A stretch of DNA of 63,560 nucleotides, filler included, from Chrysochromulina tobinii (taxonomy: Eukaryota): the NCBI GenBank assembly GCA_001275005.1. It is 10 parts of 10 records of this genome, joined end to end, with 100 filler letters (N's around TTAATTAATTAA, not from the genome) between each part and the next. Parts side by side here need not be neighbours in the genome. Positions count along the whole stretch, not along the records: positions 22,084 to 32,648 come from JWZX01000019.1; 9 more parts are not named here. One strand, given 5' to 3'. Of this stretch, positions 24,013 to 60,549 are shown piece after piece. Both the position numbers and the translations under genes were made by a program. The number at the start of each line of letters is the position of its first letter. Within the stretch, counting starts at the first letter, position 1. The notes below the pieces were generated by a model. The model was not told the origin of the DNA, searched no databases, and saw only the letters and a list, made by a program, of their open reading frames with translations.

Positions 24013-24586
24013 CCACAATGCCCAGCTGTTGCACGGCGACACTGGCGCAGCCGTAGCCGCATCAATAGCCGATGCCAGCAGCTCAGGATCGAACACGCCA
24101 AAACCACCGCGAACATTCGGGCCGAGATACTCTGGAATTGTGGAGCAAATCCGGGCCCGCAAGGCGAACGGAGGCACCCCAGCTGGAAGTAGCTCAGAAT
24201 CGAACGCGCCAAAATCACCGGCACCGCGAACGCTCGGGCCGAAATACTCTGCAATAGTCGAGCAAGTCCGGGCCCGCAAGGCGAATGGAGGCACCTCGGC
24301 TGGAAGTAGCTCAGAGTCGAACGCGCCAAAACCACCGCGACCGCTCGGGCCGAGATACTCTGAAGTCGCCGAGAGAATCCGGGCCCGCAAGGCGAACGGA
24401 GGCACCCCGGCTGATGCAGCGATGAACGCGGACAACACCATGAGACGCATACGCCGCGAGCAGCGGCGGGTCGTGGGAGATCCTCCAGGAGATCATTCGG
24501 GAGATCCTCTGGGAGATCCTCCAGGAGATCCTCTGGGAGATCCTCTGGGAGATCCTCTGGGAGATCCACCGGGAGATCGGATTTGA
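22085..24586 (+). CDS. BEACH domain + IQ motif + VPS9 (Rab5 GEF) domain protein, 5'-truncated
   Basis: BEACH: LDLNDPRRYR, THYSSPAYV, GDVKELIPQFY, DVVLPPWA, ALESDFVSAHLHLWIDLIFG, FGQTPPQLF. IQ: LIQANARRWLGRR. VPS9: LAADELISVVAYVL..SELAFIERF..GEHGYCLATV. Confidence 0.88.
24077..24415 (+). repeat. Three ~114-120 bp coding tandem repeats (SSSESNAPKPPRxxGPRYS..IRARKANGGT), followed by 12-bp GGAGATCCTCYG repeats at 24476-24578
   Basis: Visible in both DNA and translation. Confidence 0.9.
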
Positions 24587-24904: not shown

Positions 24905-26701
24905 TCATGTCTTCCTGGTGCTTCGCGCTTCCCCACGGCTGCTATTCGAGTATTCGTCCTCTTCCCAATCCGAAGGCGGATCCTCAAGCGCGCCGCCGCT
25001 GTCCCGCGACTGCTCGTCATCGTCGTCAAAGGCCTGCATCCAGTTCTTGGGCTGGGCGCCATACTGGGCGCCCGCGCGGCTGTCGTGCGCCTGGGAGGTG
25101 TGCGGCCTCGTTGGTGGCGCGCCCTCCTCGAGATCCTCAAACGCGGTGGTCCAGTCGGCCGCGGCGGCCGCTGCAGCGTCCTTCACAGCGTCCTTCACAG
25201 CGTCCTCGTGGGCGCCCTTCGAGCGCGGGGGCATCGCCCCCGGCAGTTGCCCATAGTGCGGCGAGAAGGTCGCATCCCACAGCTCCGCGGCCATCAACGC
25301 CTCCTCGGCACTCGGCGGCGCCTTGAGAGCCAGCGCCATCGCTTCCACAGCAGCCTGCTCGGGAGTGAGCGCCGTGCCGGGCGCACCGGACTGGGCGTGC
25401 AGGCGCGCACGCGGGGTGGACACCGACATGGGCGCCGCCGTGGGCGTTGCCCGCCCGCCGCCACCACCACCGCCCGCCGACTTGCGACTGCGCGGACGCT
25501 GTCGGCGAAGCGTCCCGCAGAGACATCCTGCACAGCTGAGGGCGAAGGCGAGGATGACGAGGAGAGGCCCGATGAGCTCCATCGCCAGCCGCCGCCCCGA
25601 TCGGATCGCCTCGAGTGCGCCGCCACCCCACGTGAACAGCAGCAGCAGCGCCGTCAGCGTCACGAGCCAGAGCCCTCGACGCGACTGGCGCCACCACGCC
25701 TGAAGCTTATCCGCCGGATGGGCATTCGCTGGCAGGGAGCGGTCCGCGCCACCGCAGTAGATGGACGCTGTGAGTGCGAGCTCGAGGAGGAGCCACACGT
25801 GCATCGGCAGCAGCGCCAAGCGCCAGCTCACGTGCAGGCCACCGTCCCCGAGCAGTGGAGGCAGCACAGTGAGCTGCGTCGTACTGAGCAGCAGCCATGC
25901 GGCGTCACGCGCCCAGCCGCCACTCGGGCTGTCGAGGCGGGTTGGGCGCGCGGCGGGCTGGCACGTGGCCGCGAGCAGCTGGCGCTCGCGCAGCGCCTCT
26001 GGCAGCCCCGACAGCGCCACTCCCCGCTGCACGAAAAGCGGTGCGAAGACATGCAACCAGGCGAGTGGCATCGCGTCAGGCCGAGTGTAACGGTCACGCT
26101 CGGCGTCGGGGCTCGTCTGATGGAGCCGATAGCACAAGAGCACGAGGAAGCTCAGCTGGAGCGCCGCCGTCGGAACGAGCTCACGCACCGCTTCGCGCGC
26201 CGCTGCGGGCGTGTCCGCGCCGGCGCCGATCACGGCCGCCATCGCCGTCGCCAGCGGCAGCGCCAGCCACAGCGGAAGGAACAGCAGCCACCACGGCACC
26301 GCGTCCAAGTAGCCGTCGTAGTGGAGCGCGGCGAGCACGAGGGCGAGGCCGAGCAGCACCACAAGCAGCGCGCCGCCCGCCACGAGCCCCGTTGCGAAGT
26401 AGACCCTCGGAGGCGAGGAGGTCGGCTCAACGGCGCCGACCGTGCGTGCAAAGCGATGAGCCTCCTCGTAGAGATGCAGCACGTCAAGCCCGAACGCATC
26501 GTAAACCTCTCGCCTTCGAGGGTCGCTCAAAATATCGTACGCCTCCGTGACCGCTGCAAACTGCGCCTTTGTGTCCTGGGCTGATTTGTCGGGGTGCAGC
26601 TGCACGGCGAGGCGGCGGTAGGCGCGCCGGACATCGTCGAGCGTCGCGTCCACCTCGCAGCCAAGCGTCCGATACAGGTCGTGCGGCGTGTAAGGCTCCA
26701 T
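24905..26701 (-). CDS. DnaJ (J-domain) multi-pass membrane protein with TMEM185/FAM11-like WxxxFxPLW helices
   Basis: DLYRTLGC..VRRAYRRLAVQLHPDK..EAYDILSDPRRREVYD, then PWWLLFLPLW, WLHVFAPLF, SWRLALLPMHVW. Confidence 0.85.
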   Translation of the reverse strand: MEPYTPHDLYRTLGCEVDATLDDVRRAYRRLAVQLHPDKSAQDTKAQFAAVTEAYDILSDPRRREVYDAFGLDVLHLYEEAHRFARTVGAVEPTSSPPRVYFATGLVAGGALLVVLLGLALVLAALHYDGYLDAVPWWLLFLPLWLALPLATAMAAVIGAGADTPAAAREAVRELVPTAALQLSFLVLLCYRLHQTSPDAERDRYTRPDAMPLAWLHVFAPLFVQRGVALSGLPEALRERQLLAATCQPAARPTRLDSPSGGWARDAAWLLLSTTQLTVLPPLLGDGGLHVSWRLALLPMHVWLLLELALTASIYCGGADRSLPANAHPADKLQAWWRQSRRGLWLVTLTALLLLFTWGGGALEAIRSGRRLAMELIGPLLVILAFALSCAGCLCGTLRRQRPRSRKSAGGGGGGGRATPTAAPMSVSTPRARLHAQSGAPGTALTPEQAAVEAMALALKAPPSAEEALMAAELWDATFSPHYGQLPGAMPPRSKGAHEDAVKDAVKDAAAAAAADWTTAFEDLEEGAPPTRPHTSQAHDSRAGAQYGAQPKNWMQAFDDDDEQSRDSGGALEDPPSDWEEDEYSNSSRGEARSTRKT

Positions 26702-26885: not shown

Positions 26886-29800
26886 CTACGCATGGTACGA
26901 GCGTTCGAGGTGCATGCCCGCGCTCGGGCCGGCGACCACATGCGCGAGGGTCATCTTGGTGTCCGCGCCCTCCCTCCCCGCCGCCCGGAGCGCCTCGACC
27001 GCCTCACCGAGCAGCTGGCGCTCAAACTCGAGCAGCCGCCGCGCCACCTCCGCTTCCGTGGAGCCATGCTTCATCATCATCGTGCTGAGCGCCGTACCGA
27101 GCGCGCCCCCTCCCATCCCCTCGGCCCCCTCCGCGACGGCCGCGTCGTACCGAGCGCTCAGAACGGCGCCCTCGGCGATGGCGTCGTCGTGGCGCCGCTT
27201 GTGGGCCTCGAGCAGCGCGATCATGTGCTCCCTCGCGAGCGCCTCATCTCGGATGGGCCGCTGCAGGTTGAACTCGCGTCTCCATGCGCCGAGTAGGGGG
27301 CCATCAACGCCCTCGCCCTCTCCATTGCAGCCATCAGCCCCCTCGCCCTCCGCCGTCTTGAGCGCCGTCTTGGGCGCCGTATTGGGCACTTGTACGATGG
27401 CCGCCGCCTCGGCCACCTCGTCCTCGCGCACGAGCATCGCCCGCACCGCCGCGAACAGCGGGCATGCCTCGAGCCGATGATCGGGCACCCACCTGTGGGG
27501 AGTGAAGGGCGTCGTGGTGAGCACTTGCATGCAGCAGAACAGCGGGCATGCCTCGAGCGGTTGATCGGGCACCCACCACGCATGCATCGCTTCGTCACAT
27601 CCGATGGCTGCCTGGGCGGCGGCAAGCTCGATGCGCCACGTGTCAATGGCGGCGGTCGGCGTGGCCTTGCCCTCGCCGCCCCCACCGCCCCCGCCGCCCT
27701 CGCCGCCGCCGTCGCCACCCCATCGGCCCAGCGCGATCGCGAGGAGCTCGTGCGGGGTCACGGGCACCTGTGGGGAGGGGAGCGCGTCGTGGTGAGCACT
27801 TGCATGCGAGGAGCTCGTGCGGGGTCACGGGCACCTGTGGGGAGGGGAGCGCGTCGTGGTGAGCACTTGCATGCGCGCACCTCGGCGGTGTGAAGCACAC
27901 CGCCGGGCGTCGTGGTGAGCACTTGCATGCGCGCACCTCGGCGGTGTGCAGCACCGACGTCGCGTCAAAGAAGCCATAGCGCTCGAAGAAGTCGAGATAA
28001 TCGCCCTCGTCCACCGAGATCGAGATTGCATCTCCCGCCGAGAGCGTGAATTCCGCATGTAACGCCACGCACGTCGCGTCGGCGCCAAGGCGTAAGGAGG
28101 CCACCGGCCCAACCTGATGAGGAAGGCAATCATAGGTCATCATAGGCAATCAGAGGCAATCAAGGTGAGTGGTTCACAGGAGGCCACCGGCCCAACCGAG
28201 GCATGCGCGGCGAGGTCGATGAGCGGGCAGAGGGCGAGGCCGTCGAGGCCCTCCACGCGGCGTGCACGTGTCTGCGTGAGAAGCGCCGCCCAACGGAAAC
28301 GAGCTTCGTCCCAGTAGACAATCGAGAGGTTCAAAGCTGACAGCACAGCCAGTCGCTCCGCCTCCACCCGTCGCCGCCACGCGCGCGCGCGGTGCCACGC
28401 GACGCAGTGCCGCAGGAGGCGCGCCGCGGCGCTGCCCTCCTCCCAAGCGGCCAACATGGCTGATTCGAGCCGCTCGGGCGGCGCCAAGCGCGCAAAGTAC
28501 GCCGCGCGAGCGTCGGGCAGGCAAGCTGGGGCTTCTTGGGCGCGTAGGCATGTGTTGGCGGATGGGCTGCTCGCGTCGTGTCGAGCGGATGGGCTGCTCG
28601 CGTCGTGTCGAGCGGATGTGTCAAGCAGCCGCAGCAGCGCCACGAACAAGCGCCCATCCTCACGCACGGCAACGCTCGCCTCGTCGCTCGCCTTCTCCAA
28701 GCCGCCCAACGCCTGCACGCGCGCCACCACCGCCGCCCACTCGGGCTCCGGCACCTCGGATGCCAAGACGCACGCCGCGAGGGGGATGGAGAGTAGCGTG
28801 TCGCCGCACGCACAGCCGGCGCCGGCATGCAGTGAGGCGCCTCGGGCAGAGTTGGGGCGTACCTGTGGGGAGTGGAGGGCGTCGCGGTGAGCACTTGCAT
28901 GCAGCCGCGGGCAGCGTTGGGGCGTACCTCGAGGGTGTGGGAAGTGGCCAACGTCGCCAGCGCGGCCGTCGCATGCGCGGCGCGGTCATCGGCCTCGAGT
29001 ACAGCCCACATGCGTACCCTCCGATGCGCCACCCACGCCGCCATCGCCTCTCGCCGCACCACCGCCTCGGCCACCATCCCATGCTGTCTGAGGGCCGCGT
29101 TCAACGCCGACGCCTCCCGCGCGAGCTCCGGCGTCTCGAGCCAGCACAGCCTCGCGCACCTGTGGGGAGGGGGGGAGGGCGTCGTGGTGAGCACTTGCAT
29201 GCAAGCAGTCTCGAGCCAGCACAGCCTAGCGCACCGAGAGCGCAGCACGCGACCGAGCTCCGCGAGCTCCGCGTGGTACGCGAAGAGGGCGGCGGCCCCG
29301 GCCGCGGAGAGCGCTGTGCTGGGCACGGGCCGCGAGTCGAGCCACGCACGCAGCCACGCGGGATCGAGGAAGACGACCGCGTCCGCGCCGTGGTGAGCGT
29401 CCGCGCCGTGGTGAGCGTCCGCGCCGTGGTGAGCGTCAGCGCCGTGGTGAGCGTCCGCGCCGTGGTGAGCGTCAGCGCCGTGGTGAGCGTCAGCGCTGTG
29501 ATGAGCATCAGCGCCGGTCGCTCCGCCGCCACGGCCGCTGTCGGCGTCGCCGCTGCCAGCGTCTCCGCCGCTGCCAGCATCGCCGCTGTTGTCAGCCCCT
29601 ACGCTGGTCGTCGGCGTGGTCGTCGACGTGGTCGTCAGCGTGGGTGGCGTCGCGCGCCATCCCGGGCGCCATCGGAGGTCGAGCCGCGTGTCGGCACTGT
29701 CGAGGGTGGCGTTGGCGGGCACGGTGGGCGTCGTCGGCGGGCTCGGCATTGGCAGCCGTGCCGCGAGCGCCGGGCGCGCGCCTGTGGGGAGGGCGAGGGC

Positions 29801-30929
29801 GCCGTGGTGAGCACTTGCATGCGCGCACCTCGGCGGTGTGCAGCACCGCCGGGCGTCGTGCTGAGCACTTGCATGCGCGCACCTCGGAGCATCTCATGCA
29901 GCCCCATGGCGAAGGGGAAGTTGTGATCGACCAGCTGTGCCCATAAGCTTATGGAGCCTGAGCGCGGCTGAGCGCATAGCGCGGCTGGGGCCATGAAGTT
30001 CTGCGAGACGGCGGAGGTCCACTCGAGATTGACGACGGCGTGATGCCAGCCGGCTGGGATGAAGACCATGTCGCCCGCCCCCTGCACGCACCTGTGGGGA
30101 GGCGAGGGCGCCGTGGTGAGCACTTGCATGCGCGCACCTCACGAAGACCATGTCGCCCGGCCCCTTGCACGCACTCGAGCATCGTGAGCTTGCCCGCCAC
30201 CGCGCTCCGCTGCAGCCGCGGATGCTCATCCAAGAACCAGCAAACGGGCAGCTGATGCTTTCCTTGGGCAAAGTGCTCGAGACCGTGCACGGCCATGTCG
30301 GTCTCGGGCGCGAGCATGCACCAGCGCTTGCGCCCGGCCAGGCACACGTTCCACGCGCTCGTGCACAGCGGGTCCACGTGCAGGAAGGTGCCGCTGCGCG
30401 CGCCGCCAAAGAAGCAGTAGCGCGCGCGCTTCGAGCCTGGGATCTCCGCGAGGAGGTCGTCGGCGAAGAAGGAGGGCGGCGCGAAGTCGTCGAGCAGCGC
30501 CGCGCGCTCGCCCTGGAAGCTGCGCTCCACCAGGTAGTATGGCGAGTCGGCCGCGTTGTTCGCTGCGTACTCCACGTACTCGCGCAGCGGCAGCCGCACA
30601 TCATCAGCAAGGTCCATCTCAAAGTCGCCATAGTGCGCCACGAGCGCCTCGGCGCTCGACCACCGCTCGGCTGCGCGCCAGCCCCACGCCTTGGCGGCGC
30701 CGCGCATCACAAAGGGCGTCGTACGCGCGCTCAGGCTCGCCGCGAGAGGCTGCTCCGCCGCATCCACGCGGAGCTCCTCCATCGTCGTCGCCGCCGGTGG
30801 CGCAGCACCCAGGCTATCGACAACGCGGACGGCCTCCTCGCCACGCTCACGAATGTTGTGCAGAGTCGAGCTGCCGAGCGGCTCCAGCCAGCGTCGGGCC
30901 ATCGGCGAGGTTGGCTCCGAGAACTCCAT
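26886..30929 (-). CDS. JMJD6-like JmjC oxygenase fused to a degenerate Rubisco-LSMT-type SET domain; 8 exons: 30929-30175, 30091-29883, 29781-29235, 29159-28928, 28862-28197, 28113-27937, 27767-27577, 27492-26886
   Basis: Exons sum to 3384 nt (1127 aa + stop) with consistent phases. JmjC: GTFLHVDPLCTSAWN, GRKRW, FIPAGWHHAVVNLE. SET-like: RGASLHA..GDTLLSIP, LCPLIDLAAH, AGDAISIS..FFERYGF. Confidence 0.85.
27493..27576 (-). other. Exon-echo intron (84 bp, in frame)
   Basis: 40-bp echo GTGGGTGCCCGATCA.C.GCTCGAGGCATGCCCGCTGTTC plus module ..CTCCCCACAG. Confidence 0.85.
27768..27936 (-). other. Compound intron: two abutting units 27936-27835 and 27834-27768 joined by AG/GT, three module copies
   Basis: Removal gives HTAE|VPVTPHELLAIA. 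A 67-bp tandem duplication spans the acceptor. Confidence 0.85.
28114..28196 (-). other. Exon-echo intron of a second family (83 bp; GATTGCC-repeat body, CCTCATCAG acceptor)
   Basis: TCG|GTTGGGCCGGTGGCCTCCT..GATTGCCTCTGATTGCCTATGATGACCTATGATTGCCTTCCTCATCAG|GTTGGGCCGGTGGCCTCCT. Confidence 0.88.
28863..28927 (-). other. Exon-echo intron (65 bp)
   Basis: GAG|GTACGCCCCAACGCTGCCCGCGGC..module..CCCCACAG|GTACGCCCCAACTCTGCCCGAGGC. Removal fixes the frame into the SET N-terminus. Confidence 0.9.
29160..29234 (-). other. Exon-echo intron (75 bp, in frame)
   Basis: 27-bp echo GTGCGC(T/G)AGGCTGTGCTGGCTCGAGAC plus module. The unspliced ORF reads CARLCWLET-ACMQVLTTTPSPPPHR-CARLCWLET. Confidence 0.85.
29379..29515 (-). 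repeat. 18-bp coding minisatellite (GADAHH)x7
   Basis: Unit GCTCACCACGGCGC(G/T)GAC on the minus strand. Confidence 0.92.
29782..29882 (-). other. Module-family intron (101 bp), near-copy of intron 27835-27936
   Basis: CCGAG|GTGCGCGCATGCAAGTGCTC..CCCCACAG|GC. Removal joins the JmjC frame to the MPSPPT frame. Confidence 0.88.
30092..30174 (-). other. Exon-echo intron (83 bp)
   Basis: GA|GTGCGTGCAAGGGGCCGGGCGACATGGTCTTC..GCATGCAAGTGCTCACCACGG..CCCCACAG|GTGCGTGCAGGGGGCGGGCGACATGGTCTTC. Removal restores LECVQGAGDMVFIPAGWHH. Confidence 0.9.
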
Positions 30930-31152
30930 GTTCACTATGAATACACAGCGACGCGTCGGTATCTCCGGAAAGAGAAAGAGCGGCGAGACCCATGTATGAA
31001 CTCGGGAGGGAGCGCGCCCGCCGACATGGGCGGTGGACCCCCAGATGTCCGCGCGGAACTAGGCGTGAATTTGCGAGGTTGGCGCGAAACTTCGCCTGTT
31101 CAACACAACGCGCTTCGAAGCACGATTTCTTTTTGTGAAGGTGCGTGCAAAA

Positions 31153-59420: not shown

Positions 59421-60549
59421 GGAGCACTGTGCGGTCTCGCGTGTGTCGTACCGGGCATCTTGTGTGCATCATGTAGGTTTCCGTACTGAAGTGTGCGTCA
59501 TACGTCGTCCACTCTTTAACTTAGGATCGCACACCACTCTATAAGAGACACACCATTGATAACAGGCAAGAGAATGTGTTTTGGAGCTCGAATTGTGGAG
59601 CTGTGTGGCCTAATGGTTGACAGGTCGATATTCGAGGCGAAGCCGGATTTCGATGCACATCTCCAAAGATCGCGAGACAGCACATAGCTGGAGGGCCATG
59701 GATCGAGTCTAGGGACTATATGGAGTCATACAACACAGAAAATCACGCCATCCCAAGTCACTCTGCATGGCCCTAGTACCGAAATGCGACCAAAACGCGA
59801 CCTCACAGGCCGTACTTGGGGTCACACTGTGACATCTGAGTGGCGACAGTGACTTGAGATGGTGTGGTTCTCTGTGCTGTATGACTCCATATAGTCCCTA
59901 GACTCGATCTATGGCCCTCCAGCTATGTGCTGTCTCGCGATCTTTGGAGATGTGCATCGAAATTGACCTTGGACGATAAGTAGGTCGACATTCGAGCCGA
60001 GGCCGGATTTCGATGCACATCTCCAAAGATCGCGAGACAGCACATAGCTGGAGGGCCCTAGATCGAGTCTAGGGACTATATGGAGTCATACAACACAGAT
60101 AATCACGCCATCACAAGTCGCTTTGCATGGCCCTAGTACCGAAATGCGACCAAAACGCGACCTCACAGGCCGTTCTCGGGGTCACAATGTGACATCTGAG
60201 TGGCGACAGTGACTTGAGATGGCGTGATTTTCTGTCCTGTACGACTCCATATAGTCCCTAGACTCGATCTATGGCCCTCCAGCTATGTGCTGTCTCGCGA
60301 TCTTTGGAGATGTGCATCGAAATCCGGCTTCGCCTCGAATATCGACCTGTCAACCATTTGGCCACACAGCTCCACAATTCGAGCTCCAAAACACGTTCTC
60401 TCGCCTGTTATCGATGGTGTGTCTCTTATAGAGTGGTGTGCGATCCTAAGTTAAAGAGTGGACGACGTATGACGCACACTTCAGTACGGAAACCTACATG
60501 ATGCACACAAGATGCCCGGTACGACACATGCGAGTATGCACAGTGCTCC
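59421..60549. mobile_element. Fold-back / long-TIR non-autonomous element with an internal tandem dimer of hairpins
   Basis: ~340-bp imperfect terminal inverted repeats (GGAGCACTGTG...CACAGTGCTCC). Internal 360-bp direct repeat, each unit with ~115-bp inverted arms. No coding capacity. Confidence 0.85.

Follow-up and report, generated by a model that had tools for sequence, protein, structure and literature searches.

Two predicted introns that follow each other directly, with a zero-length exon between them, lie in a minus-strand gene of Chrysochromulina tobinii. From the analysis of the surrounding DNA (a stretch of 63,560 nucleotides including filler, from GCA_001275005.1, hereafter the window), we propose, with a probability of roughly 0.65, that an intron module and the 29 exon bases behind it were doubled by a recent local copy, through a microhomology-guided template switch, and that the resulting 169 nt are likely removed in two steps. 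Stacks of this kind are likely a recurrent by-product of local copying within a mobile intron family, and not intermediates in the birth of introns.

Table 1. Features of the host gene and of its abutting intron units, in window coordinates (transcription of minus-strand features runs from high to low numbers; an echo is a copy of the start of the downstream exon)
Feature	Position	Strand	Remarks
Host gene	26886..30929	-	8 predicted exons, 1127 aa
Empty 46-nt target site	27263..27308	-	Starts with GT, ends with GC; likely duplicated around a module in the X14/X18 strain
Single echo intron of the module family	27493..27576	-	84 nt, 40-nt echo
Downstream exon	27577..27767	-	Its first 29 nt recur as the echo
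Perfect 2 x 67-bp tandem repeat	27739..27875	.	Copies overlap by 3 nt (CGC) where they meet
Unit 2, young 67-nt unit	27768..27834	-	29-nt perfect exon echo and 38-nt module
Internal AG/GT junction, zero-length exon, candidate recursive site	27833..27836	-	At 27835/27834; candidate from sequence
Unit 1, older 102-nt intron unit	27835..27936	-	Donor GTGCGC, module ending CCCCACAG
Inner copy of the upstream exon end	27881..27904	-	Predicted 10-bp hairpin; its extension covers the AG/GT at 27881/27880
Upstream exon end, 20 nt	27937..27956	-	Source of the piece in unit 1 and in the 29882 intron
Single echo intron	28863..28927	-	65 nt
Single echo intron	29160..29234	-	75 nt, 27-nt echo
Daughter intron	29782..29882	-	101-nt copy of unit 1, 7 edits, without unit 2
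Echo intron	30092..30174	-	83 nt; pre-module filler matches the unit-1 donor junction

The perfect 67-bp tandem duplication that a sequence-only reading had described was recovered by Tandem Repeats Finder at 27739-27875, with a period of 67, 2.0 copies and 100% matches. The repeat stops at both sides and is exactly 137 nt long (2 x 67 + 3), so that the copies overlap by 3 nt (CGC) at their junction. The copied segment does consist of the module, its acceptor and the first bases of the exon, as had been claimed, but the exon part is 29 nt long and not about 27. In unit 2 the echo (27834-27806) is followed by a module (27805-27768) that is identical to the module of unit 1, and this module variant is private to the site among the 107 distinct module sequences compared; the echo of unit 1 matches at 6/8 positions only. 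Both units begin with GTGC, and each is equipped with a separate donor, branch motif (CTCAC) and pyrimidine tract. At the internal junction, the acceptor at 27835, preceded by the CTCAC motif and a C-rich tract, is directly followed by the donor at 27834. This AG/GT resembles a recursive splice site and, with an acceptor of this composition abutting a donor, is a candidate for one, as the sequence-only reading had put forward. A single match to the AG/GT-spacer-module pattern is present in the window, and 0 of 100 shuffles had one.

The inner duplication of the upstream exon end and donor, also proposed previously for the first unit, is real: it has a period of 56 and copies the exon end 27956-27937 together with the donor. 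The inner copy carries a 2-nt insertion and one substitution, two changes that improve pairing of the predicted hairpin. Three features had been overlooked, namely the stop-free character of the 102-nt unit 1, a second internal AG/GT inside it (27881/27880) and the copy of unit 1 at 29882. In the predicted fold of the region, the start of unit 2 pairs with the stretch preceding the module of unit 1; the z-score of this fold (-3.4) is inflated by the repeats and was left out as functional evidence. A GGCGGTG hairpin, considered as a family-wide part of the module, was rejected, being present only in the host gene when 108 loci and the window were compared.

A single 67-bp copy expanded during assembly, which had been named as the finding that would overturn the duplication, is a practically negligible explanation. 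Over 4301 nt, two other assemblies (L002 and L077) match the window at 100% identity, as does a third one (L027) over 3347 nt, and all four members of this cluster show two units; these are other assemblies of one strain and not independent strains. Furthermore, two RNA runs, X17 and X15, which derive from one sample of a separate freshwater study, each hold a contig of 97 nt that spans the echo-to-module junction without any difference. As this junction is impossible from a single-copy allele, assembly expansion is refuted. It is true that unit counts vary among assemblies in 7 of the 19 stack clusters with at least two loci (some of them cut by contig ends), and the exact number of units rests on short reads; the refutation concerns the presence of the junction.

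To follow the consequences for the protein, we compared the reading frames left by each combination of sites. With the six other introns removed, use of the distal AG gives a protein of 1127 aa and use of the proximal AG alone shifts the frame (925 aa), as had been expected. When only unit 2 is removed the frame stays open, because unit 1 is 102 nt long, in frame and stop-free when retained, and the product reaches 1161 aa with 34 residues added. On the other hand, removal of only unit 1 from the pre-mRNA, with unit 2 kept, shifts the frame, and the inner donor at 27880, if it alone is used, cuts the protein short at 883 aa.

The window was compared with all six listed RNA runs and with one of 13 DNA data sets, all in the form of contigs. 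In X14 (depth 14.9) and X18 (depth 10.5), that is, in 2 of the 6 RNA runs, contigs join 27763 to 27933 by a 169-nt skip with GT..AG ends, which corresponds to the exon join 27937/27767; the upstream exon end 27937-27956 is seen in spliced RNA. This join agrees with the earlier claim that splicing must skip to the distal AG or proceed recursively, as both units must go if the frame seen in the related-strain mRNA is to be kept. X14 and X18 are polyA libraries of one study; of 162 positions, 3 in the X14 contig and 2 in the X18 contig deviate from the window, indicating that they come from another, related strain. This strain may lack unit 2 or the whole intron and, since it is possibly stack-less, the join fixes the exon junction and not the splicing path of the window allele. 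The junction check suggested with the sequence-only reading was hence answered in part: 27937/27767 was found, in the related strain, and the 27937-to-27834 intermediate was absent from the contigs of the six RNA runs, a form of data that drops rare forms. X16 and X19, RNA runs of the same culture type, have no contig across the stack junction; X16 yields one unspliced contig (27909-28179, depth 3), which is evidence neither for nor against splicing. An 88-nt contig of X15 (4 differences, 2 gaps) begins at 27936, but the start of a contig is uninformative and this one may come from the 29882 intron. Elsewhere in the gene, RNA contigs skip the echo introns at 28927-28863 (65 nt, X16, low depth) and 28196-28114 (83 nt, X14), showing that echo introns can be removed as predicted.

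The introns of this gene belong to a family of many copies with similar sequence at unrelated sites. Family statistics, array units included, refer to 123 distinct acceptor sites, which come from non-redundant DNA of about 429 kb that had been selected by pattern. The acceptor is followed by GT at 105 of the 123 sites, GC precedes ATGCAAG at 120, and an echo is found at 87. Family introns carry their acceptor and recruit their donor from the duplicated target. Their constant part starts sharply at the palindrome GCATGC and ends with CCCCACAG; start and end are not reverse complements, and by inspection terminal inverted repeats are absent. Strong echoes reach ATGCAAG in 32 of 76 cases, in 29 of which the GC is supplied by the exon, as in unit 2. 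Single echo introns measure 57-96 nt in 30 of 32 cases (135 and 139 nt in the other two), and their echoes are 13-41 nt long and perfect in 6 of the 32, with no short fixed duplication of 3-9 bp.

Within the window the module core occurs nine times, every time inside the host gene (0 of 100 shuffles). The nine copies are confined to one 4-kb gene, between 27493 and 30174, and three introns share a common pre-module junction; this clustering and the common junction suggest local hopping within one gene. The intron at 28114-28196 has an 18-nt echo and represents a second family, with short repeats of the TGATTGCC type ending in CCTCATCAG, so echo anatomy is not confined to one module. A further sub-family of about 75 nt starts with GTACGCTGATTGCC and has its own donor (L062, L081, L011, L021, L044). 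In L062, which thereby mirrors the echo introns, the repeat corresponds to the upstream exon end and provides the acceptor. Pieces of the GTACGCTGATTGCC sub-family recur as fillers at other sites.

Position 27308 offers a comparison between an empty and an occupied site. The window has one copy of the target there and no module, and in the X14/X18 data the loose ends of two module contigs match window positions 27278-27307 (29/30) and 27265-27294 (30/30). The X14/X18 strain therefore likely carries an 84-nt, in-frame echo unit at 27308, a presence/absence polymorphism deduced from two 30-nt loose ends. A site that is empty in the window and likely occupied in the relative speaks against the need for a predecessor intron; an exact loss of the unit from the window allele is possible. 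The depth of the unit in X14/X18 is 19.7, similar to that of its flanks, in polyA libraries, and it may be partly retained in mRNA. The family is apparently active, with strain polymorphism.

To find further stacks, metagenome contigs were scanned for the acceptor-GT-spacer-module pattern, which returned 108 stretches (80 with full flanks) in 38 groups. When a full module was demanded on each side, 82 arrays in 27 clusters remained, of which 25 were classified and two, being incomplete, were left out. There are hence at least 27 distinct stacks of 2-4 units, this locus included, a floor drawn from a pattern-selected sample in which the pattern itself demands AG/GT and many matches lie at contig ends. 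A local echo is present on the first and last unit in 13 of the 25 classified stacks, on the last unit only in five (including this locus), and a clear last echo is lacking in the remaining seven. In 10 of the 25 stacks the neighbouring modules are identical, and in 17 they differ by at most two edits, compared with 0.09% and 1.1%, respectively, of random module pairs from 66 single sites. This comparison indicates that stacks are mostly local copies. In viral contigs the stack pattern had 0 matches.

Copies in this family keep traces of their parents. The 29882 intron carries the 20-nt exon piece of 27956-27937, a piece confined to the host gene, which identifies unit 1 as its parent, copied without unit 2. 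Unit 1 and this daughter differ by 7 edits and the two tandem copies by 0, and unit 2 is therefore the younger. Among the stacks, five have a last spacer that matches the local exon in the first 5, 7, 5, 7 and 7 nt only. These matches of 5-7 nt exceed the null mean of 2.7 (4 of 500000 draws), for a set of five picked by eye among the seven stacks without a last echo, L079 and L087 having been dropped for local echoes with indels. The last spacer and filler of L040 are the native echo unit of L043; L043 is the parent, the daughter is represented by L040, L004, L045, L058, L059 and L101, and the 7 nt behind the acceptor are common to target and parent. Inserts of this sort contain more than a single unit of their donor. 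A parent was found for one of the five foreign spacers. The score of another, L038, is reached as well by 7% of unrelated exons, and its spacer may be a decayed local echo. In L049 (also L052, L064, L072 and L099), a circularly permuted 48-nt unit lies between 24-nt direct repeats, and fillers of family introns trace to other family members. The foreign spacers and L049 together indicate a donor in which AG is followed by an echo and a module, that is, a tandem array or a circle. It is because they carry such parent barcodes that the stacks are useful.

We propose that the copy at this locus was the cis form of the event that generates the echo introns of the family. A DNA end, broken or nascent, that lies 20-45 nt inside the exon would switch at GC to the GCATGC start of a module; copying would run through CAG and resume at the GT of the exon, the start of which would be duplicated in the process. 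With a distant donor the product would be a new echo intron and, with the neighbouring module as donor, a stack, whose echo-module-echo repeat could then grow or shrink by slippage to 2-4 units. Unit 2 has the anatomy of a single echo intron, and would accordingly stem from an ordinary birth event in which the neighbouring module served as donor. The order of events here would be unit 1, the inner duplication, the copy to 29882 and then unit 2. The exact repeat, the CGC overlap, the private module variant and the 26 further stacks all argue for a local copy. Against it, the modules of three of the five stacks that share this layout are separated by 3-7 edits, as would fit a distant-donor insertion or an older age.

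How the two units leave the transcript is a separate matter. The signals make removal of both units in two steps, in either order, slightly favoured over any other path, given that each unit has complete signals and that single echo introns measure 57-96 nt in nearly all cases. The origin could be the same with splicing in one step, donor 27936 pairing directly with the distal acceptor 27768, and the inner AG/GT being a tolerated passenger or an occasional, frameshifting alternative acceptor. This is a serious possibility, at somewhat less than even odds: the full skip is the sole product seen, the predicted fold brings the start of unit 2 to the region before the first module, and two of the 32 single introns do reach 135 and 139 nt. 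One-step splicing would nonetheless have to pass over a branch motif and acceptor in unit 1 that are identical to those of unit 2 and closer to the donor, and to span a length well outside that of the other 30 introns; moreover, the join was seen in polyA contigs, from which intermediates would be missing.

Other origins of the stacks were weighed against the local copy. The sequence-only reading saw in the stack a birth intermediate, whose precise loss of unit 1 would found the echo family and so offer a second route to it. Indeed, deletion of 27936-27835 would leave a canonical, in-frame 67-nt echo intron, and GTGC starts both units; such a loss could refresh echoes at old positions. But refreshing an echo at an old intron position is all that such a loss could do, as no new position can result. 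The duplication needs a module already at the site, the polymorphic 27308 site has no predecessor in the window allele, and an allele lacking unit 1 is absent from the four assemblies (all of one strain). We therefore consider both the intermediate and the second route very improbable. Somewhat less so, and still improbable, is a tiny non-autonomous Replitron/Helitron (HUH) DNA transposon that inserts before GT with target duplications of variable length and re-inserted beside itself. Replitron-1 combines a fixed dinucleotide end with a fuzzy one derived from the parent flank and with duplications of variable length, and the C. tobinii genome has yielded one Replitron protein (as described in PMC10288648); the GT behind 105 of 123 acceptors, the fillers from family members and the palindromic GCATGC start would suit such an element. 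The element would be only about 40 nt long, however, and its constant part consists of splice signals, whose fixed end is accounted for by selection for splicing; the Replitron-1 signature is itself called possibly non-canonical in PMC10288648. Stacks could also be footprints of copying from a circular intron, as RNA or DNA, or from a tandem donor, with priming on a few bases after the AG, copying back through the module and sometimes past one unit. The five last spacers that are foreign beyond their first 5-7 nt, the L040 unit native at L043 with its echo and filler, and the permuted unit of L049 point this way, as do the 97-nt contigs of X15 and X17, which amount to one full cycle of the 67-nt word with flanks uncovered, and the full-length intron circles described in yeast and human cells (PMC10996645). 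Yet tandem DNA arrays are common (13 of the 25 stacks carry echoes throughout) and would give the same products without a circle, tip clipping of linear molecules, or a longer array, can yield the 97-nt contigs, and the five spacers, chosen by eye from seven, include one with a parent and one, L038, that may be a decayed local echo. We hold this origin to be unlikely, at about one-in-four odds. Slightly less likely again is its fullest form, in which an echo intron, once excised and circularised, would itself be the template for microhomology-primed copying that spreads the family, stacks would be rolling-circle footprints, the echo a parent barcode, and dozens of genes would be recursively spliced at newly made zero-length exons.

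The host gene encodes a JmjC/Cupin_8 domain in exons 1-2 (Pfam), with no domain assigned to the remainder; a SET domain in the C-terminal part of the protein was considered and discarded for want of Pfam support. A search for longer proteins resembling exon 5 found none, which is weak evidence. An Rfam search over 27400-30300, with E up to 1, gave 0 matches, and the units therefore contain no known snoRNA or other RNA. At 29379-29516 a coding tandem repeat (18 nt x 7.7 copies) encodes ADAHHG repeats and has a weak match, under the Pfam cut-off, to a Plasmodium histidine-rich protein. Immediately downstream of the host gene, a single-exon gene (24908-26701) encodes a DnaJ and PF10269 membrane protein with 92% identity over 36% of its length to a Chrysochromulina tobinii protein, the relative being shorter (433 aa); an exact-match look-up of the DnaJ protein returned no name. 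Upstream, the summed contig depth of 30976-31100 is high in DNA and RNA runs, and this segment is probably another dispersed repeat. Other tandem repeats in the window lie at 24080-24413 (117 nt, 3 copies) and 59622-60323 (360 nt, 2 copies, 95%).

How new introns arise is still open for families without transposon hallmarks, and a culturable alga offers a test case. Copies here record their parents in a captured exon piece, in foreign echoes and in fillers, so that lines from donor to daughter can be traced, and these records allow DNA, pre-mRNA and an intron circle to be tested as the possible donor. In addition, the stacks supply dozens of natural, very young AG/GT sites on which stepwise handling by a short-intron spliceosome can be tested. 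Taken alone, the single locus is a modest case, zero-length exons having already been published for fission yeast.

Recursive splicing at zero-length exons is known from the ratchet points of Drosophila. Two zero-length exons with recursive splicing have been described in Schizosaccharomyces pombe (bioRxiv 10.1101/226894), and the likeness to our case lies in a 3' splice site followed by a 5' site, a short intervening sequence and a unicellular eukaryote; in contrast to S. pombe, the candidate site here came about recently as a side effect of copying the end of a mobile intron, and such sites lie at 27 loci or more. Fungal stwintrons, as presented in PMC7138796, likewise comprise two U2 units that are removed consecutively, in one case also in one step, but there one intron sits inside a splice element of its partner, whereas our units abut and their elements are intact. 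Replitron-1 of Chlamydomonas (PMC10288648) shares with the family a fixed dinucleotide end, a fuzzy end traceable to the parent and a variable duplication; Replitron-1 (3.6 kb) and Replitron-N1 (about 910 bp), however, have terminal direct repeats and are not introns. Intron gain by tandem genomic duplication and by staggered-break repair is reviewed in PMC3443670. As in tandem genomic duplication, direct repeats give rise to the splice sites here, and a head-to-tail AG/GT copy can be removed precisely. In the classical model pure exon is copied and a new position results, whereas the copy here includes a branch point and pyrimidine tract and falls at an existing position: 38 of the 67 nt are intron module, and the site was already held by unit 1.

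Another parallel is with introners. Full-text literature searches, in which titles and abstracts and few subscription papers were covered, returned nothing on long-echo or stacked haptophyte introns. In the accessible portions of PMC9860276 and its supplement, C. tobinii and C. parva appear only in the assembly table and two module motifs had 0 matches, and the available main text of PMC12130899 has no mention of Chrysochromulina, tandem or microhomology. An introner of a marine Chrysochromulina sp. is described with a 4-bp duplication and its own 5' site (PMC9860276). For Symbiodinium and for Polarella (classes 4/5 and 6/8/10), introners are reported that bring the 3' site with them and obtain the 5' site from a target duplication (bioRxiv 10.1101/2020.10.14.339549; PMC9860276), with target duplications given as 3-8 nt (bioRxiv 10.1101/2020.10.14.339549) or 3-9 bp (PMC9860276). 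They share with our family the short multi-copy introns, the carried acceptor, the recruited donor and the kept frame. As described, these introners have fixed duplications of 3-9 bp and many have terminal inverted repeats, whereas the echoes here vary from 13 to 41 nt; furthermore, in contrast to them, the fillers of this family come from parent copies, and its units form head-to-tail stacks.
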